A program made the translations under genes and the position numbers. 64,000 bases of DNA from an uncultured Candidatus Saccharibacteria bacterium (lineage in GTDB: Bacteria > Patescibacteriota > Doudnabacteria > UBA920): positions 230 to 64,229 of the forward strand of contig CAYJQY010000005.1 in NCBI GenBank assembly GCA_964372905.1. Direction: 5' to 3'. Positions within the stretch are counted from its first letter, which is position 1; each line of letters begins with the position of its first letter. The notes under the pieces are model-generated. The model saw nothing but the letters and a program-made list of their open reading frames with translations. It searched no databases and was not told the origin of the DNA. Of this stretch, positions 6,958 through 53,139 are shown piece by piece.

Positions 6958-8574
6958 CTATTCCACAAGTTCGCCGCCGAACACGCGCAAAGCGTCGGTG
7001 AGCAAATTTACGGTGTCGCCGCTTGCCGCGGCCGGTTCGGTTTTAGCCAGGCGCGCGGACAGCCCCACGCGCTTGCCCATAACCTCGGCAATGGCATTGA
7101 TAATAAGCGCGCGTTGCTTGGCGCTTTCCAGATGTTCCTTGTGAAAAAGGTAGCGTACTTCCAAGGTCACCACGCCATCCTGCACCTCGGCCAGCGGCAA
7201 ATTTTTTACGAGCGTGGCCAGCGGGCTGTTGATTTTTTTTATGGCCTCGATAATCCCCGACCAATGCTCTTTGATCTGCGCTTCGGTTACGGAAGTATCC
7301 ACCGGCGGCTCAAGTGTTTGCGCTGTGGCTGTGCGGGCAACTCGTTGACCTCTGGTTTGATTATTTTCCGCGGCCGCTGTCATTGTCGGAATTTCACTGG
7401 CCACCAAACCGCGACCCTCTTCTTTCACCAAATTCACCGGAACTTCCGCACCCACGGCGGCCAATCTATAGCTGGCCTCAATGCCGGCCAGCAACAAAGG
7501 CAAATCCTGGTTGGGCGCAAAAGGCAGTTCCTTGAACGAGCGCAGAAACAAGCGAATGATATGCATAAGCTGATTCACGGTCAGCTGATCGGCCTGGCGT
7601 TGGAGCACTTGCTTGCTCTCGTCCGGGGTCGCGCTCTTGGCGCCATTGCTGGCGCCGCCGCCAGCCTCGCCGCCGGGCCCTCTGCCCCCGCCGAGCTTCA
7701 CCATCAATAACCTACGCAAATATTCCAGCAGATTTCGGTTGAAAATAAAAAAATCAAGGCCGGCCTCAAGCCAGCGATCAAACAATTCCGGCAGCCGCTC
7801 GGGCGAGCGGGCAATAATCGCCTCAATCAATTCCTGGCTGACGCGCTCGTCGCTGAGCCCCAGCAGCCGCTCTACCGCGGGGCGGTCAAGCTTATCGCCG
7901 ATCGCGGCCAGCTTATCGAGCAGAGACAGCGCGTCGCGCAAACTGCCTTCGGCCTGCCGCGCAATCAGCCCCAACACATCGGTATCGTAATGCCACTTTT
8001 CCTGGCGGCAGACTTCCGCCAAAAAATCCGCGATGTCGACTTCGGACAACCGATGAAAATCAAATCTTTGCGTACGCGAAATTATAGTTAAAGGAACTTT
8101 GTGGGCTTCCGTGGTGGCCAAAATAAAAATAGCGTGCGTTGGTGGTTCTTCTAAAGTTTTCAGCAAAGCGTTAAAAGCGCCCTTAGACAACATGTGCACT
8201 TCATCAATTATGAAAACTTTGTACTTGCCCTTGCTCGGCGTGAAGCGAACATGCTCGATAAGCTCGCGGATGTTGTCCACGCCCGTGTTTGACGCCGCAT
8301 CAATTTCTATCAGATCTAAAAAAAATCCGGCATTGAACTGCTGGCAAATATCGCACTTCAGGCAAGCTTCGCCGTTTTTGCCGTTGGGGCAATTTAACGC
8401 GCGCGCCAAAATCCGGGCCACGGAAGTTTTGCCCACGCCGCGGCTGCCGGTAAACAAATAAGCGTGCGCCGGCGTGCCGTTAATTACGGCGTTGCGCAAA
8501 GTCTGCACAATGGCCTGCTGGCTCACCACGCCGTTAAAGGTTTGGGGGCGATATTTTCGGTAGAGGACAGGCAT
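6958..8574 (-). CDS. dnaX: DNA polymerase III subunit gamma/tau
   Basis: YRPQTF, GxxGxGKT, zinc Cys cluster CPNGKNGEACLKCDICQ, and a DEVHML Walker-B–like motif. Confidence 0.9.
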   Translation of the reverse strand: MPVLYRKYRPQTFNGVVSQQAIVQTLRNAVINGTPAHAYLFTGSRGVGKTSVARILARALNCPNGKNGEACLKCDICQQFNAGFFLDLIEIDAASNTGVDNIRELIEHVRFTPSKGKYKVFIIDEVHMLSKGAFNALLKTLEEPPTHAIFILATTEAHKVPLTIISRTQRFDFHRLSEVDIADFLAEVCRQEKWHYDTDVLGLIARQAEGSLRDALSLLDKLAAIGDKLDRPAVERLLGLSDERVSQELIEAIIARSPERLPELFDRWLEAGLDFFIFNRNLLEYLRRLLMVKLGGGRGPGGEAGGGASNGAKSATPDESKQVLQRQADQLTVNQLMHIIRLFLRSFKELPFAPNQDLPLLLAGIEASYRLAAVGAEVPVNLVKEEGRGLVASEIPTMTAAAENNQTRGQRVARTATAQTLEPPVDTSVTEAQIKEHWSGIIEAIKKINSPLATLVKNLPLAEVQDGVVTLEVRYLFHKEHLESAKQRALIINAIAEVMGKRVGLSARLAKTEPAAASGDTVNLLTDALRVFGGELVE

Positions 8575-11593: not shown

Positions 11594-11698
11594 ACTTTTT
11601 GGTGTTTATTTGGTTGATTTTATTTGAGTTTCAGCCGTGTTTCGGAAGTGCTATTAAGATAGCACAAGCCCTTAAATGGTGCAAGGGGCTAGGGTCAA

Positions 11699-11786
11699 CC
11701 AGAAAAATGTTAGGTCTTGGAGCCAGCCGCAGGAGCCAGCCGCAAGGCGCGACGAGGACGGTGACAAGATCCTAGCATTTTTCTGG
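11699..11786. repeat. long hairpin element: 16-bp inverted repeat (15 of 16 matching) enclosing a 56-nt GC-rich loop with a 13-bp direct duplication
   Basis: ccagaaaaatgttagg … cctagcatttttctgg; the interior holds ggagccagccgca twice in tandem (11719-11744). It starts 3 nt after the stop of the TraG-like gene. Confidence 0.6.
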
Positions 11787-11788
11787 TT

Positions 11789-14341
11789 CTACAACCCCCG
11801 CTCAATAGCCGGCTCCCCCGCGGCCATCATATCGGCCACCTGGCTTGCCTCCAAAATCTCCCCCTCAACTTCGGCCCGCGGGCGACCGTGTTTCAAACGA
11901 GAAAGCTGGCGGATGGCCTGGGCCACTTCCTGCTGCTGCGGCGTGGGCTTAGGAAGCGGATAGGTGGCCATGTTGAACGGCTTGGATGCTGTGCCGTTGA
12001 TCATCAATTTAATAAAGGCGTTAAACCGGTCAACATTAACCAAATCAAACTCGCTGAAAGTCGGCGAAAATTCCTTGGCCATGATTTCCGAATCTTCCAC
12101 GCCGATGCGGAACGCCACCATGGTACCGGCGTTGCCGAACACGGCGTCGCGCAAATCCTTGCTCGCCGCCCCCTGCGCCCCGGCCTGCTGCTCCAATTGT
12201 CCTAAATACTGGTGCGCCACTATCAATCCTAAACGGTACTTGCGGGCTTCGCTCAAAATGGCAGCGAACGCATCGGTGATGAAATTTTGGAACTCATCAA
12301 CATAGAGATAAAAATTCTGGCGCTGGGATTCGGGAATATCGGCTCGCGACAAGGCGGCCATCTGTAATTTACTGACGATGATTAAACCCAAAAGTTTCGC
12401 ATTAATCTCCCCGACTTTTCCCTTGGCCAAATTAACCAACAGGATTTTTTTCTGATCCATAACATCGCGGAAATTAAAAGCGCTCTTGGACTGCCCCACG
12501 ATGTTGCGCATCATGGAATTTTCCACGAACCGCCCGACTTTGGAAATAAGGTAGCCAAGCATTTCGCTCTTATGAAAGTCGGACGTTTTGGCCATTTCTT
12601 TTTCCCAAAACGCCCGGACTATCGGGTCTTTTAGCTTGGCCGTTTTATATTTCTGAAATTGCGTGTCAGTAAAAATGCGGGGAATTTCGACGAGCGAGCC
12701 CGGGTGCTCTTCATCAGCCATTAACGTCAGCATGGCATTGCGCATATTGTGCTCAAACATCGGACCAAGCATGGCCGGGTCAGTCACCAATTTATAAAAG
12801 ATGGAGATCATCTCCTGAATGGCAAAATCTTTTTCTTCTTCGCTGCGCACCTCAAGCATATTCAGCCCCATGGGCCGCTCAAGATCAAACGGTTCAAACA
12901 AAATTACGTCTTCCGCACGCTCTTTGGGAACATGCGGCAAAACATCTTCGATGAAGTCGCCGTGCGGGTCAATAATACACAAGCCCTCTCCATTTTTGAT
13001 ATCCTGCACTGACATATATTTCATGATTTCGGTTTTGCCGCTGCCGGTGCGGCCGATTATGTACATATGGCGCATGCGGTCCTCGCTGTCAATGTGCACC
13101 CGGGTTTCCTGGCCGCGATAAATGTTGCGGCCGAGCAGGATGCCCTCCTTGGGCATGTTGAGAGGCGGCGGCGCTTTTTTGGAAAGCAGCCACTTGATGT
13201 TGGGCGTTTCTATAAAGGGCGTGGGCAGATGCCATAAGCTGGCCAGCTCTTCGGTATTGAGCAGCATTTTTTTCAGCGGATATGAACGGTAAATGCGGAA
13301 AATAAAATCTTTGATAATGTCGCTTTGGTCGCGGTGCCGCTCGACAAAACCGTTGAAAGGCGGCATATTGTACTGCAAAAACGAAGATAGGATATTGTTG
13401 AGATGGAGGCGCGCGTTACCTGGTTTAGCGGATGATGTAACCACACGAATGTTGGTTTTATAACCAGGCCGACTAGCTTTTTCCTCAAGCTTTTTAACAA
13501 TCTCCTGCTGCATCGGCGTCAGGTGAATGGGGCTGCTGTAGCCGGTTAAGTCGTTGCGATTGGGCTGGTTTTGCTGCTGACCGCGGCCAAAAAAATTACT
13601 GCCAAAGCCGCTGAACAAGCTGACTAAAGCTTTGATGAAAATATTCCGTTCCACCATGGTGGGGTTTTTCCCCTGCTGGACTTCCAGGGCCATGTGCCGC
13701 GGCTTGGACTGCCAGCCGGCTTCAGCCGGACTGACTATGAACTGGATGGCCGCGCCCTCGTTCTCGTCAAGCTTGGACATGGCATTGGTCAGCGAATTCA
13801 GTGGATCCGACTCCATGCTTTTGTAAGTTCTAATGGGATAATAATATTTTTTTGCGGGCTTAAGTTCGGCAGCCAGCACTTCGCCGCCTTTTTGGAACGG
13901 ATTGTAACCGCGCACTTCTTCAATAAAGGCGTGGGGATACTGGGCCGAGACCTGCTTCTCCACCAGTTCGCGCAAGTGTTTGGGGCAGTTGATATAAAAG
14001 GAAATTTTTTTATCGACGCAGGCAATTTCAAAACTCACAAACTCGCTTGGCTTAAAAAAATGGACGCCGCCGATATGTGACACGGTCGTGAACAGCTGTT
14101 CAGCCACGGCGATCAAATTCTTCTTTTCCTCCTCGCCCTTGTTTTTCATCTCTTCTTTTTTGTCGGAATTTTCCTTGGGCATCTGAATTTCCAGGAAAAC
14201 CCAGTTGAGGGCACGGGGGACGATGATTTTGCTGTGATACCAGTGGCGCCGGCCATAATAAAACAGCACGACCAAAAAGGTCGCAACCAAGGCCGCCAAT
14301 ACCAGGATGGTAATTTGTATCGTACTCAACTCCAATGACAT
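11789..14341 (-). CDS. TraG/TraD/VirD4-superfamily P-loop ATPase, type IV secretion coupling-protein-like, with ~400-aa N-terminal region
   Basis: N-terminal TM helix; Walker A IIGRTGSGKT; Walker B LYVDEFQNF; downstream ARKYRLGLIVAHQYLGQL, as in the VirD4/VirB4 RK…Q motif. 850 aa. Confidence 0.5.
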   Translation of the reverse strand: MSLELSTIQITILVLAALVATFLVVLFYYGRRHWYHSKIIVPRALNWVFLEIQMPKENSDKKEEMKNKGEEEKKNLIAVAEQLFTTVSHIGGVHFFKPSEFVSFEIACVDKKISFYINCPKHLRELVEKQVSAQYPHAFIEEVRGYNPFQKGGEVLAAELKPAKKYYYPIRTYKSMESDPLNSLTNAMSKLDENEGAAIQFIVSPAEAGWQSKPRHMALEVQQGKNPTMVERNIFIKALVSLFSGFGSNFFGRGQQQNQPNRNDLTGYSSPIHLTPMQQEIVKKLEEKASRPGYKTNIRVVTSSAKPGNARLHLNNILSSFLQYNMPPFNGFVERHRDQSDIIKDFIFRIYRSYPLKKMLLNTEELASLWHLPTPFIETPNIKWLLSKKAPPPLNMPKEGILLGRNIYRGQETRVHIDSEDRMRHMYIIGRTGSGKTEIMKYMSVQDIKNGEGLCIIDPHGDFIEDVLPHVPKERAEDVILFEPFDLERPMGLNMLEVRSEEEKDFAIQEMISIFYKLVTDPAMLGPMFEHNMRNAMLTLMADEEHPGSLVEIPRIFTDTQFQKYKTAKLKDPIVRAFWEKEMAKTSDFHKSEMLGYLISKVGRFVENSMMRNIVGQSKSAFNFRDVMDQKKILLVNLAKGKVGEINAKLLGLIIVSKLQMAALSRADIPESQRQNFYLYVDEFQNFITDAFAAILSEARKYRLGLIVAHQYLGQLEQQAGAQGAASKDLRDAVFGNAGTMVAFRIGVEDSEIMAKEFSPTFSEFDLVNVDRFNAFIKLMINGTASKPFNMATYPLPKPTPQQQEVAQAIRQLSRLKHGRPRAEVEGEILEASQVADMMAAGEPAIERGL

Positions 14342-14822: not shown

Positions 14823-14989
14823 AATGGCACAGCGGTTTTATCAACATAAAATCTTTATGAACAAAATCTCCAATTTCGATAAAATCCGCGTCTTTACCCC
14901 GTTGATACTACTGTGGTAAAATGCCAATATAATTTCATTATTTAGGTGCCTAACCCTTGAGCAACTTTGCTCGGGGCATGGCCGAAAAA

Positions 14990-15031
14990 CCATCCAAGGT
15001 AGAGAACTCCTCGTCAGAGTTCCTTGGATGG
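14990..15031 (+). promoter_or_regulatory. perfect 10-bp-stem hairpin with nested 5-bp helix in the leader of a small plus-strand ORF
   Basis: ccatccaagg-tagag-aactc-ctcgtca-gagtt-ccttggatgg. A GNRA hairpin ttgggt-gcaa-acccaa follows at 15053-15068. Confidence 0.5.
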
Positions 15032-15136
15032 TCGTATCTCGAAAGGGGTATGTTGGGTGCAAACCCAAGCTCTGGCGGGGAGCTTTATGTTTTTTGCTTC
15101 CCCCCTCTTCCCGCCGAGCCCAAAGAAAGGAACTTT

Positions 15137-17039: not shown

Positions 17040-17056
17040 ATATTTAACAGGCAGTT

Positions 17057-17199
17057 GGCTCGGAAAGATTGCTACTGAAGAGCCTCCGCAGGCCGATTGC
17101 ATTGCATGGTTCGCTACAGCGAAGCGGAAGCGAAATCGGCCGAGGACGAAGCGAGGCGCTGGCCGAGCGAGCGGTCTGAAGAAGCAATCTTTCCGAGGC
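17057..17199. repeat. GC-rich palindromic intergenic element with 15-bp perfect (22 of 25 extended) inverted-repeat flanks, between rpsE and rplO where rpmD normally lies
   Basis: ctcggaaagattgct (17059-17073) pairs with agcaatctttccgag (17183-17197). The interior contains the GC-rich segment gacgaagcgaggcgctggccgagcgagcgg. Confidence 0.6.
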
Positions 17200-17211
17200 T
17201 TATCAATTTAA

Positions 17212-19961: not shown

Positions 19962-20279
19962 TTAGATGACTTTGCCGCTTTGCTTGGCCACACGCTGCTT
20001 AGTGCCGTTTTCTAAATATTGATAGCCCACGCGCGTGGGGTTGCCCGAGTGCGGGTCAACCAGGATGACTTTCGCGATTGGCATGGGTCCCGCGGCGATA
20101 ATTTTCTGCCCTCCCTGGCCTGGCCGTTTGCCTTTTTCGAACTTGGTGTGAAGGTTGACGTTTTCCACCACCAGGCGGCCTGCCGCGGGCAAAACACGCA
20201 GAACCTTCCCGGTCTTGCCCTTATCCTTGCCGGACAGCACCTTTACGGTATCGCCTTTTTTAATTTTCAGCTTAATCAT
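19962..20279 (-). CDS. rplX: 50S ribosomal protein L24
   Basis: KIKKGDTVKVLSGKDKGKTGKV KOW motif. Confidence 0.9.
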   Translation of the reverse strand: MIKLKIKKGDTVKVLSGKDKGKTGKVLRVLPAAGRLVVENVNLHTKFEKGKRPGQGGQKIIAAGPMPIAKVILVDPHSGNPTRVGYQYLENGTKQRVAKQSGKVI

Positions 20280-20298
20280 AAATGAAAAAATTCATTGA

Positions 20299-20415
20299 TA
20301 AGATGGAAACATATGCATTAAGAAAACTATTGGAGCGTCAGTTTTCAAGCTTTGGCGAGGCCAAAGCACAAGACACCTGCGACCTAGTTTTTTCAATGCA
20401 TATGTTTCCATCTTA
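20299..20415. repeat. structured intergenic element, copy 1 (19-bp perfect flanking inverted repeats plus conserved core) between rplN and rplX
   Basis: agatggaaacatatgcatt (20301-20319) pairs with aatgcatatgtttccatct (20395-20413). The core holds aagaaaactattggag … gttttca … [gctttggc-gag-gccaaagc] … gcgacctagtttt, shared with the copy at 26391-26505. Confidence 0.65.
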
Positions 20416-20420
20416 ATAAT

Positions 20421-20792
20421 TTAAATAACTTCCGGGGCCAACGAAACGATCTTAGTAAAGCCTTTATCGCGGAGTTCGCGGGGAATGGGGCCGAAAATGC
20501 GGGTGCCGCGCGGCTCCACGCTGTCCTTGTTCACCAATACGCAGGCGTTCTCATCGAACCTAATATACGACCCGTCCTTGCGGCGCATTTCCTTGCGCAA
20601 GCGTACGATCACCGCATAAACTTTGTCGCCCTTTTTGACCTGGCCGGTGGGCGCGGCTTGCTTGACGCTGGCGGCAATGACATCGCCGATGCCGGCGAAG
20701 CGGCGCGCGTTTTTTCCGCTCACGCTGAAAGCCGCAACGACTTTGGCGCCGGTATTATCTGCAACTTTTAACCATGAACGAACTTGGATCAT
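20421..20792 (-). CDS. rplN: 50S ribosomal protein L14
   Basis: [17 protein letters not shown] signature. Confidence 0.9.
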
Positions 20793-21055: not shown

Positions 21056-21175
21056 AAATTTATCAAATATTATTTCTCGGAGGGGTGGCCCGGTTCGGAG
21101 GCCCTCCACTGGCGCGCAAGGCAATGCCGAGCACCAGTGGAGGTGAACCGCGGGACAGGACCCCGAAGAGGAATG

Positions 21176-23490: not shown

Positions 23491-23617
23491 GAGGTTAATT
23501 AACTATATGATTGCTGTGCTGCCGAAGCCGGATTTGCCAGCTGATAGCATTTGCTCCATATCTTTACATAGGGCAACAGCTATCAGCGGCAATCGGCGAG
23601 GCATCAAATCATCATAA

Positions 23618-25702: not shown

Positions 25703-26377
25703 TTACTTTTTCTTTTTGCTATCCTTCTCTACTATAATTTTCACCAGCGGCTGGACTTTTCCGGTAGAAATAATTTTGACCATGCCGTTGCGATGGCCCG
25801 GCACGGCGCCCTTCACGGCCAGCAAATGCTTGGCCAAATCAACATCAACCACCTGTAAATTTTTCACGGTTACGGCTTGCGTGCCCATGTGGCCGGCCAT
25901 GCGCATACCCTTGCGGACATGCTGGGGAAACCGCTGGCCAATGGAACCCACGCTGCGCGGCCGGTCATGGCCGTGGCTGGCCGGAAAACCCTTAAAACCG
26001 TGGCGCTTCATGGCGCCGGCAAAACCGCGGCCTTTCATCGTCCCTACCACATTCACCATCTCGCCCACCTGAAAACCTGAAATATCAATTTTTTTGCCGC
26101 GGGCAAAATCGGCCGCATCCTTTACCCGAAATTCAGCTAATTTGGCAATACCGCTCAAACCTTTGAGATGGCCGCTTACGGCCTTGCTTATATGCCTGCT
26201 GCCTGCCACGGATTTGCCCACCCCAACCTGCACCGCGGAATATTTATCTTTTCCCGAGGCTTCCTTGACCTGGATAACCACCATGGGCAGGACTTTCAAC
26301 ATAGTAACCGGAATAACTTCCCCGCTATCAAGGAAGATCTGGCTCATATTTAGTTTCTTGCCGACGATGAAGTTCAT
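25703..26377 (-). CDS. rplC: 50S ribosomal protein L3
   Basis: L3 family; 224 aa. Confidence 0.9.
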   Translation of the reverse strand: MNFIVGKKLNMSQIFLDSGEVIPVTMLKVLPMVVIQVKEASGKDKYSAVQVGVGKSVAGSRHISKAVSGHLKGLSGIAKLAEFRVKDAADFARGKKIDISGFQVGEMVNVVGTMKGRGFAGAMKRHGFKGFPASHGHDRPRSVGSIGQRFPQHVRKGMRMAGHMGTQAVTVKNLQVVDVDLAKHLLAVKGAVPGHRNGMVKIISTGKVQPLVKIIVEKDSKKKK

Positions 26378-26390
26378 AATTGTGCTTGAC

Positions 26391-26505
26391 CATCATCCCA
26401 TCCCTTGTCTAAAGAAAACTATTGGAGTGTAAGTTTTCAGCGTTTTGGCTTTGCCAAAGCGCTGAAAACCAGCGACCTAGTTTTCGTGGCAAGGGATGGG
26501 ATGAT
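26391..26505. repeat. structured intergenic element, copy 2 (17-bp flanking inverted repeats of unrelated sequence, same conserved core) between rpsJ and rplC
   Basis: catcatcccatcccttg (26391-26407) pairs with caagggatgggatgat (26490-26505). The core holds aagaaaactattggag … gttttca … [ttttggc-ttt-gccaaa] … gcgacctagtttt. It ends 14 nt upstream of the rplC ATG. Confidence 0.65.
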
Positions 26506-26688
26506 TTTAACAAAAATTGGTAAAGAAAAAACAGGCGCGTAACTATCGCCCGTTCAACTTTAGCCTGGCACGCCTTGTGGGCGGCTGGCTGGTTGCGGCA
26601 GATAGTTATCTAATTTCGCAAGCTGGTTAGGCTGGCCAAAAATTAGAACTGATCTACACTAAAACCTTACAATGACTTTATCAATTAT

Positions 26689-27021
26689 TTAACTCATTTT
26701 AATCTCTACATCTACTCCGGCCGGAAGGTTGAGGTTGGTGAGGGAGTCAACGGTCTTGGGCGTGGGGTCAAGGATGTCAATTATGCGCTTATGCACCCGC
26801 ATTTCAAACTGCTCGCGGCTGTCCTTTTTCACAAAGGTGGAGCGTAGAACCGTGTACTTGGTTTTCTCCGTGGGCAGGGGCACCGGGCCGCTGACTTGCG
26901 CGCCCGTGCGCTTGGCCGTATCCACAATCTGCTTGGCGCTCTGGTCAATCAGTTTATGATCATAGGCGCGAATCTTAATGCGAATCTTGGGCTTACTGAC
27001 CTTGCTGGCAACCTTTTCCAT
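26689..27021 (-). CDS. rpsJ: 30S ribosomal protein S10
   Basis: [38 protein letters not shown] signature. Confidence 0.9.
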
Positions 27022-33240: not shown

Positions 33241-33383
33241 GGTCGGCGAGCGATTGCCGTTCGCACACGCGTAGCCTCGTCCAGCGACTCGGCTCGCTCC
33301 CGCTCGGCGGTTCGTCCCGACTTCGTCGGGAACCGTGCCGAACCGCCTGCGCGAGGGTGCTCACAGGCAATCGCTCGCCGACC
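33241..33383. repeat. GC-rich palindromic element with 18-bp perfect inverted-repeat flanks in the rpsL leader; its interior is related to the 17057-17199 element in opposite orientation
   Basis: ggtcggcgagcgattgcc (33241-33258) pairs with ggcaatcgctcgccgacc (33366-33383). The interior shares gacgaag…ccgagcg(g)gagcg word order with the rplO/rpsE element. Confidence 0.6.
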
Positions 33384-35474: not shown

Positions 35475-35715
35475 AATTTTATTATTTAGTCCAGAAAATG
35501 CCAGGCTTATGGAACTATCCGCAGGCCGCCGAGACAGTTTGCCCGGCAAGCAGCATTTGCACCGAGAGATATCTGAGCAACTCTGCTGCTTGCGCGGGCA
35601 ACTGGCGAGGCGGCCGACGACGAGGACTGTGACAGAAGCTTGGCACTTTCTGGACACACTATTGATTAATTATAGCAGGTTATGCTACAATCACCCAGTA
35701 TTTAATTTCATTTCT

Positions 35716-52470: not shown

Positions 52471-53139
52471 CTATTTACCATTCTTTTTCTTCAGAGTTAA
52501 AAAATGTCCGAGCTTCACTTTTTTCGAAAACATTTCGGATTTATTGTATTCGCTTAATGAAACTTCGTGAGATACTCGTTCAACAAAAATTCCTGCTTTT
52601 TTCAAAAGTGCAATACGATTCGGATTATTCGACATTAACCGAATATTTTTTAGTCCGAAATGGCGAAGAATATCTGCCACATCTCCATAATGTTTTCGGT
52701 AATCTTCATCAAACCCGAGCGAAGTATAAGCATCTACAACTAACTCATGCTTTCTACGCTGACCTTCGGCGTACACAAGAAAGTGATTTCTTAATCCAAC
52801 AGCTTTACCATGCTGTTCAAACGCAAATATGATTAACCCATTTTTTTCTTCATCAATACGCCGCTTTGCTTCTTCCAACTGCCAACCACAATCGCAATAT
52901 TGTGAACCAAAGAGGTGTCCCCAAATACAGACAGATTCTACGCGCACTAGTGGCTTTTTAACTTTTGCCGGATTGCCTTTGATTAAAGCGGCGTATTGCC
53001 CGTCCGGAAAAGCAAAATACCAGAGAGTAAACTCACTTATCTTTCCATTGTTGTTAGAAAGTTTGAGTGGCAATTTTACAGGTCCGACCAATTCGTATCT
53101 GCCAAATTGGTGGACTGTTTTGATTTCTTGTTTTTTCAT
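52471..53139 (-). CDS. ribA: GTP cyclohydrolase II
   Basis: …VRVESVCIWGHLFGSQYCDCGWQLEEA… The ORF-track N-terminus runs through the tRNA-Leu gene, so the start was set at MKKQEIK (ATG 53139). Confidence 0.7.
   Translation of the reverse strand: MKKQEIKTVHQFGRYELVGPVKLPLKLSNNNGKISEFTLWYFAFPDGQYAALIKGNPAKVKKPLVRVESVCIWGHLFGSQYCDCGWQLEEAKRRIDEEKNGLIIFAFEQHGKAVGLRNHFLVYAEGQRRKHELVVDAYTSLGFDEDYRKHYGDVADILRHFGLKNIRLMSNNPNRIALLKKAGIFVERVSHEVSLSEYNKSEMFSKKVKLGHFLTLKKKNGK

Follow-up and report, generated by a model that had tools for sequence, protein, structure and literature searches.

Several kinds of small non-coding palindromic element are known from bacterial genomes. Sequences of the repetitive extragenic palindrome (REP)/BIME and REPIN type have units of 20–40 nt, reach tens to hundreds of near-identical copies, carry a 5′ GTAG-type tetranucleotide and are accompanied by a RAYT gene. 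ERIC (IRU) elements, known from Gammaproteobacteria, are imperfect palindromes of ~127 bp that resemble each other along their whole length, ends included, and no transposase is known for them. Miniature inverted-repeat transposable elements (MITEs) such as Correia/NEMIS, RUP and BOX are small non-autonomous insertions with conserved terminal inverted repeats and target-site duplications; the long RNA hairpins of Correia elements are cut by RNase III. Hairpins can also be formed by replication template switching, a single occurrence of which yields perfect stems together with multiple ‘compensatory’ substitutions (PMC8794818). Here we analysed two nested-hairpin elements, W1 and W2, located in the ribosomal-protein cluster of a 64 kb stretch of contig CAYJQY010000005.1 (the whole of which is referred to as the window), from an organism that its L2 and L24 homologues place among the Doudnabacteria-like Patescibacteria. 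With moderate confidence, we assign W1 and W2 to a small family of non-coding insertion elements, built as nested palindromes, that has not been described before and is specific to the Patescibacteria (candidate phyla radiation; CPR). No account of such elements in Patescibacteria was found in the searchable literature.

W1 lies between rplN and rplX and W2 between rpsJ and rplC. Both had been pointed out in an earlier interpretation made from the nucleotide sequence without database searches (the sequence-only reading), and their presence inside the ribosomal-protein cluster was confirmed, with W2 taken as 26392–26505. Their parts are listed below in window coordinates, with the strand of the motif and, for the complete elements, the score obtained with a covariance model of the core (R1).

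20299..20415, + strand: W1, complete nested-hairpin element between rplN and rplX, 73.8 bits
20299..20319, + strand: W1 outer stem P1, 5′ arm TAAGATGGAAACATATGCATT, in perfect 21 bp Watson–Crick pairing with 20395–20415
20320..20337, + strand: W1 5′ core block, comprising the P2 5′ arm GAAAACTA, UU bulge, GG, A and GC
20341..20374, + strand: W1 inner hairpin P3, variable
20379..20394, + strand: W1 3′ core block, comprising GC, GA, CC and the P2 3′ arm TAGTTTT
20395..20415, + strand: W1 outer stem P1, 3′ arm
26392..26505, + strand: W2, complete nested-hairpin element between rpsJ and rplC, 66.7 bits
26392..26409, + strand: W2 outer stem P1, 5′ arm ATCATCCCATCCCTTGTC
26412..26429, + strand: W2 5′ core block
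26433..26469, + strand: W2 inner hairpin P3, 17 bp including one U.G pair
26472..26487, + strand: W2 3′ core block
26488..26505, + strand: W2 outer stem P1, 3′ arm

Each element folds as a rod made up of the outer stem, the helix GAAAACUA/UAGUUUUC, a small asymmetric internal loop and an apical hairpin, with fold-energy z-scores of −10.3 to −12.9 and none of 200 dinucleotide shuffles folding as well on either strand. The 16 nt block AAGAAAACTATTGGAG occurs exactly twice in the 64 kb (20320–20335 and 26412–26427), as does the 13 nt block GCGACCTAGTTTT (20379–20391 and 26472–26484), and no additional match appeared in the window when three and two mismatches, respectively, were allowed. These shared blocks, the GTTTTCA common to both elements and the pairing of AAAACTA with TAGTTTT in each had all been noticed previously. 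The outer stems were likewise correctly described as perfect and unrelated in sequence, although their lengths required revision: 21 bp rather than 19 in W1, and in W2 16 Watson–Crick pairs, or 18 bp when a U.G and a C–G pair are added, rather than 17 (26392–26409 with 26488–26505). The inner hairpin, said to keep its pairing but not its sequence, does not behave in this way. The apical helices, GCTTTGGC/GCCAAAGC in W1 and GTTTTGGC/GCCAAAGC in W2, are identical at seven of eight positions; the strands GCUUUGGC and GUUUUGGC each pair with GCCAAAGC, and because the lone C-to-T difference is one-sided and gives a G.U pair, the apical helix holds no compensatory change. Only lower P3 and the outer stem change in sequence between W1 and W2 yet remain paired. 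The orientation also needed correction, since all genes here are on the minus strand, which places the motif, in the form originally given, antisense to the mRNA of the operon. In the assembly of ERR4904391, the end of one contig (L021) and the start of another (L023) fall inside W1 at the AAAACTAGGTC block common to W2; this break is repeat-induced and provides no evidence for a different allele.

A search for further copies, as had been suggested alongside the sequence-only reading, identified seven more members. Five belong to one Doudnabacteria metagenome-assembled genome (MAG; GCA_038230955.1) and another to a Saccharibacteria MAG (contig CAZSSN010000007.1); the seventh is a diverged copy from a relative of the window organism. 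In the first search, one genome per species was scanned with the two core blocks joined by a gap; R1 and a rebuilt model, R2, were also used. The members beyond W1 and W2 were as follows.

S1: L001 1504–1612, Saccharibacteria MAG, found by the gapped pattern scan
D2: L002 3209–3304, Doudnabacteria MAG, on the same contig as D3, found by the gapped pattern scan
D3: L003 7127–7233, Doudnabacteria MAG, found by the gapped pattern scan
D4: L003 2049–2118, Doudnabacteria MAG, R1 55 bits
D5: S19–L22 spacer of the ribosomal operon of the Doudnabacteria MAG (L035), R1 34.9 bits
D6: S17–L14 spacer of the same operon (L035), R1 26.7 bits
R24: L024 17846–17917, after secY in the relative of the window organism, R1 15.5 bits

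The family therefore totals nine members in four organisms, at nine different junctions and with a common architecture. The low-scoring R24 gave pairwise z-scores of 4.8–7.7 against W1, W2 and S1. A search with R2 with filters switched off found nothing further in the window, nor in the operons of six other relatives. Density was two copies in 64 kb for the window and five in ~36 kb of the Doudnabacteria MAG. A pattern scan of metagenomes and two of viral sequences returned chance matches or nothing; the chance matches had neither P2 nor an outer stem, and one lay inside a cobQ ORF. The family is real yet small and patchy. One further locus, L026 211–310, was retained only as a candidate: it shares GAAACTAT/ATAGTTTC and TTGAGCGG...CTGCGA, but its z-score was 3.0 and R2 missed it. 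Four other hairpins of the window (11697–11788, 17059–17197, 33241–33383 and 52854–52998) were rejected as members, with z-scores below 3 and no R2 score.

Comparison of the nine copies separated a conserved interior from variable stems. Elements measure ~95–120 bp and fold as rods, in which a long outer stem (P1, 15–21 bp), different in each copy, encloses in turn the inner stem P2 (GAAACTA/TAGTTTC) and an asymmetric internal loop (UU bulge, GG/CC, A opposite GA, GC/GC), both of them conserved, and at the apex the variable hairpin P3. Mean pairwise identity was 0.81 for the 5′ core block and 0.76 for the 3′ core block, as against 0.59 for P3 (shuffled expectation 0.54) and 0.52 for the P1 arms (shuffled expectation 0.49). 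Together with the absence of target-site duplications (see below), the near-random identity of the outer arms bears out the earlier judgement that these are not MITEs with terminal inverted repeats. Copies from the same genome tend to have core and P3 in common, and not P1; the P3 pairs W1–W2 (0.78) and D3–D4 (0.81) were outliers in identity, and what D2, D3 and D4 have in common in P1 is confined to its innermost stretch (GTTGYA). Perfect conservation of the loop among the first five copies is partly an artefact, as an exact pattern was used to find them. The model-found copies vary: D4 has GGCG and GCAACC, D5 has one C fewer, and D6 is without the GG/CC pair, its loop closing into a continuous helix. 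D4, D5, D6 and R24 are all changed within the ‘conserved’ loop and represent degraded copies.

Elements of this family are gained or lost at intergenic junctions, in either orientation, and are not tied to ribosomal genes. The genes bordering W1 and W2, and the spacers in which presence and absence could be compared, are given below.

19962..20279, − strand: rplX (L24), start remodelled by the W1 insertion
20421..20792, − strand: rplN (L14), stop codon 5 nt from W1
25703..26377, − strand: rplC (L3)
26689..27021, − strand: rpsJ (S10)
L14–L24 spacer: 141 nt in the window (W1); 3 nt in L033, 4 nt in L035, 10 nt in L037, 20 nt in L027 and L040
S10–L3 spacer: 311 nt in the window (W2); L024 and L026 align on both sides of W2, with the element missing
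S19–L22 spacer: 154 nt in L035 (D5); 37 nt in the window
S17–L14 spacer: 139 nt in L035 (D6); 8 nt in the window

The W1 and W2 junctions were thus empty in all seven relatives examined (L027, L033, L035, L037 and L040; L024 and L026), including the closest relative, L033, which is 88 % identical in L24. Both insertions are recent. W2 is placed 14 nt upstream of the rplC ATG. W1 left its mark on the adjacent gene: L24 begins MIKLKIKKGD in the window and MSR[I/M]KLKIKKGD in relatives, indicating that W1 entered a 3 nt spacer and removed the original rplX start codon, so that the gene now begins at an ATG two codons further on. Between W1 and this new ATG there is a small hairpin, AATGAA-TTTT-TTCATT (window 20277–20298), and no Shine–Dalgarno-like sequence was visible upstream of rplX or rplC. 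Comparison with the empty sites in L033, L027, L024 and L026 revealed no direct repeats flanking W1 or W2, and hence no target-site duplications. Copies are extragenic, and their distance to a stop codon is usually 4–23 nt. Of those that sit within an operon or between genes transcribed in the same direction, W1, W2 and D5 are antisense and S1, D4 and D6 sense; the spacers that hold D2, D3 and R24 are convergent or mixed. Among the neighbours of family members are secY, rpsU together with a HIT-family gene, a tRNA together with a xerC-like gene, and genes without a name. D3 sits between the stop codon of the xerC-like tyrosine recombinase gene and a tRNA gene (7329–7402) in the region L003 6124–7402, an arrangement of recombinase gene and tRNA that is typical of integration hot spots.

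The origin of a perfect outer stem could be traced in R24. This copy is doubly nested, and its outermost 17 bp arm (GATTACGAAAACATCTA) coincides with the final 17 nt of the secY coding region, with a perfect inverted copy 124 nt downstream. Because its D-Y-E codons are common to L029 and L030, the secY arm is ancestral and must have been the source of the inverted arm downstream. A template-switch product is expected to pair an ancestral arm with an inverted copy of that arm. The structure after secY in L024 (17803–17960) is a triple-nested hairpin, with the inverted-copied secY end as its outermost arm. Rearrangement of a different kind was seen in the L29–S17 spacer hairpin (window 21056–21175, 120 nt), which is orthologous in the closest relative (L033 2351–2466): the flanks are co-linear and the interior of ~95 nt is inverted, matching at 78 of 95 positions in the inverted sense and at 63 of 95, with many gaps, otherwise. 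Relatives also carry different hairpins at the same operon junctions. The sequence-only reading had taken conserved single-stranded blocks with compensatory changes in two nested helices as the product of selection on RNA structure. In view of the secY-derived arm, the inverted L29–S17 hairpin and the documented outcomes of template switching, this signature has a non-selective source here and the argument is unsafe; the variable perfect outer stems of W1 and W2 probably derive from palindrome formation at the DNA level and not from RNA selection.

Long hairpins unrelated to W1 and W2 were also observed. The L2–S19 spacer (23491–23617, 127 nt) contains a long composite hairpin, and the S5–L15 spacer (17040–17211, 172 nt; 4–25 nt in relatives) holds another at 17059–17197 with a 15 bp perfect outer stem. 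Outside the S10-to-secY cluster, long-stem inverted repeats were found at 33241–33383, 11697–11788, 52854–52998 and 35524–35615; these have perfect outer stems of 13–18 bp and GC-rich interiors, and are dissimilar to the W1/W2 core.

Several observations weigh against interpreting W1 and W2 as insertion elements with stems copied from DNA. The window codes solely for housekeeping functions, none of its 30 non-ribosomal genes encoding a transposase, recombinase or HUH/Y1/RAYT enzyme, and no longer element flanked by the core ends was present in the ~300 kb of CPR DNA compared. Neither outer arm of W1 or W2 was traced to a local flank, so that the direct evidence of inverted copying comes from R24, a diverged member. 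The P1 arms of three pairs, S1–R24 (0.70), D5–D6 (0.68) and W2–D2 (0.67, with the common stretch CCCATCCCT), are more alike than most shuffles, which indicates that part of P1, at least, is sometimes carried along with the element. Six copies drawn from three organisms, and spanning classes, have the same core loop, and this could reflect functional constraint. A double change in D4 at facing loop bases, A to C and G to A, hints at an interaction between them. Lastly, the motif strand is slightly more stable than its complement in 8 of 10 members and has more G.U pairs (21 versus 14), a preference that is weak evidence given that the copies are homologous and not independent, and that is too slight to prove function as a single strand.

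On the insertion-element interpretation, the spreading unit would be either the core alone or the core together with inner P1. The W1 and W2 outer stems would have arisen as that of R24 did, by inverted copying of nearby sequence through template switching or palindrome extension, and may have been kept perfect by recombination between the arms instead of selection acting on each base pair of an RNA. For copying to new sites, our best guess is an enzyme acting in trans that recognizes the folded single-stranded core. In the mRNA, each copy would form an imperfect duplex of 45–50 bp lying 14–19 nt upstream of the rplC and rplX start codons, and an RNase III-type processing hairpin, as the sequence-only reading had also suggested, is plausible. 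Since such a duplex is a likely RNase III substrate, its effect would be incidental mRNA processing or translational uncoupling as opposed to dedicated regulation. Given that the insertions lie near the start codons of essential genes, one of which has been replaced, processing and translational coupling of the ribosomal-protein mRNA have probably been altered. More speculatively, and at rather long odds, the core may be the recognition module of a new mobilization system of Patescibacteria, which would move a small hairpin as single-stranded nucleic acid without target duplications, the hairpin then building a site-specific outer stem by inverted copying of its flanks. If this were true, such mobile elements would form a ‘palindrome-accreting’ class, remodelling start codons and operon spacers within reduced genomes, and a dedicated mobilization system, if one exists, would be new.

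The alternative that survives best, which we regard as possible yet unlikely, is that the family functions as a structured RNA (a small RNA, or an mRNA element acting in cis), with a loop that serves as a protein-binding or tertiary-contact module and stems that are free to vary as long as they pair. It would account for a loop that is conserved whilst P1 and P3 vary but remain paired, and for a core common to Saccharibacteria and Doudnabacteria. In the core helices, 95.8 % of cells are paired, with none of 500 shuffles as high, and RNAalifold independently recovered P2 together with a covarying base of P3; the D4 double change and the mild advantage of the motif strand in G.U pairs and stability point the same way. 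However, both-sided changes affect only 3 of 11 core pairs and are owed mostly to the divergent R24, and the loop is degraded in several copies, closing into a plain helix in D6. Perfect Watson–Crick stems of 15–21 bp are atypical of selected RNA helices, and one of them was copied from coding DNA. Orientation relative to host transcription is mixed, the elements are missing from the closest relatives, and no sigma-70-like promoter was found on the + (motif) strand near W1 or W2, nor is there a conserved flank able to hold one. An independent antisense small-RNA gene is therefore unsupported. Searches of Rfam with W1 and W2, at the gathering threshold and at E up to 10 on both strands, and with six related loci, returned no relevant family; W1 and W2 scored only with long-hairpin models of the microRNA-precursor type, all far below thresholds. 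No conserved ORF was detected, there being no frame or start codon common to the copies, and the 42-codon stop-free stretch of W1 in the mRNA sense was rejected as a small peptide for this reason. The loop was also compared with group II intron domain V (GAGCCGUA), the 11 nt tetraloop receptor and the kink-turn, none of which appeared to fit all copies.

It also appears improbable that the family is REP- or PATE-like and that an HUH (Y1) transposase, belonging to the IS200/IS605 or RAYT type, recognizes the bulged hairpin and mobilizes the element as folded single strands of DNA. The position of copies close to stop codons, their occurrence in both orientations without target-site duplications, the conserved imperfect hairpin with extrahelical bases and the slight preference for folding on one strand are all features that such an element would show, although the strand bias is weak and drawn from copies that are not independent. 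On the other hand, neither the window nor the sequence next to any copy contains a Y1 or RAYT gene, the GTAG-type 5′ tetranucleotide is not conserved, and copy number is low rather than in the hundreds of near-identical sequences. Derivatives of IS200/IS605 moreover have two separate end hairpins and not one nested rod. Two further possibilities involving mobile or adaptive systems were discarded. Integron attC sites do not fit, the outer ends being variable and the conservation internal, with GTTTCG departing from GTTRRRY. The outer arms do not resemble guides or spacers, as they have no other match in the CPR DNA compared and the W1 P1 arm has none in viral contigs either.

Still less credible is an invertible DNA switch (inverton), in which inversion of the segment between the arms would alter how the ribosomal gene downstream is expressed. 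Long inverted arms around an asymmetric core, members in both orientations, the inversion of the unrelated L29–S17 hairpin between the window and its closest relative, and the xerC-like recombinase gene next to D3 suggested this option. Contigs of the same strain from three other samples were nevertheless identical in sequence and orientation, at the level of assemblies, and neither an invertase or recombinase gene in the window nor a promoter inside the element was found. Recombination would have to take place at the arms, yet no other module is so poorly conserved, contrary to what is seen in known invertons. An autoregulatory leader for r-proteins or a self-cleaving ribozyme in the operon mRNA, raised by the sequence-only reading and suggested by the very stable fold directly upstream of rplX and rplC, can be set aside almost entirely: the motif is antisense to the mRNA at both sites, the same junctions are empty in all relatives examined and copies occur in both orientations and beside non-ribosomal genes, which rules out a leader, and the hammerhead, twister, twister-sister, pistol, hatchet, hairpin and HDV-like ribozymes went unmatched at E up to 10 by a simple rod without junction or pseudoknot, which leaves a ribozyme unsupported. 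In sum, that reading correctly saw a genuine repeated element whose core is conserved and whose paired flanks vary, whilst its leader is refuted, its ribozyme unsupported and its inference of RNA selection unsafe.

Other features of the operon region were also noted. The rest of the S10–L3 spacer (window 26506–26688, mRNA on the minus strand) is structured and common to L024 and L026 (GTAGATCAGTTC...GATAACTATCTGCCGC), and is followed by a hairpin and T-run just before rplC; it matches no Rfam family and may act as an attenuator or r-protein leader particular to this lineage. Not far downstream of secY, an 850 aa homologue of VirD4/TraD-like coupling proteins with DUF8128, DUF87 and TrwB domains is encoded at 11789–14341 (− strand), with synteny kept in L024, L029, L035, L037 and L040. 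Also downstream of secY, on the strand opposite the ribosomal operon, LOOT RNA (RF03000) is syntenic in the window (14947–15068, + strand, 86.9 bits) and in L024 (18210–18338, − strand, 63.3 bits), where a gene call over it, a 114 aa ORF without Pfam match, is probably spurious.

CPR genomes are very small, and the ribosomal operons of the relatives are mostly tightly packed, with spacers of 3–20 nt. In the window operon, at least five spacers are enlarged; long composite hairpins have colonized operon spacers here, and the W1/W2 family reaches another class of Patescibacteria. The findings also carry a caution for RNA-motif discovery. A conserved loop with differing paired stems has arisen in elements resembling selfish DNA, at least one stem of which was copied from coding sequence, and covariation-style arguments therefore need a DNA-level null model.

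Set against the described systems, the W1/W2 family shares features with each and coincides with none. LOOT RNA, too, is structured and non-coding, has no known function and occurs close by in the operon region, but it is branched, with several hairpins, and has no sequence similarity to W1 and W2; homology was rejected, as RF03000 matched only its own locus in the window and gave neither alignment nor model score for W1 and W2. Resemblance to REP/BIME and REPIN sequences lies in short non-coding imperfect palindromes within transcribed spacers, often just past stop codons and in either orientation, without target-site duplications, modular in make-up and forming hairpins in mRNA. Unlike REPs, the family has few copies, unrelated outermost arms and conservation in the internal loop, with no RAYT seen in the window. 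Like ERIC elements, its members are found in operons or untranslated regions in both orientations and are present or absent among relatives; the two differ in the whole-length similarity of ERIC copies and have no sequence similarity. Correia/NEMIS, RUP and BOX are comparable as small insertions able to occupy operons, and the family shares with MITEs the dispersal of its copies and their polymorphism, with empty sites in relatives, whereas it lacks both their terminal inverted repeats and their target-site duplications. Template-switch hairpins (PMC8794818, PMC10710096) have arms that are inverted copies, appear suddenly between close relatives and show apparent multi-base compensatory change, a description that the secY-derived outer arm of R24 fits. 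Template switching explains how the stems form and are kept up, but not how the core spread to unrelated loci and classes. The trait that distinguishes the W1/W2 family is the combination of internal conservation with copy-specific terminal stems.

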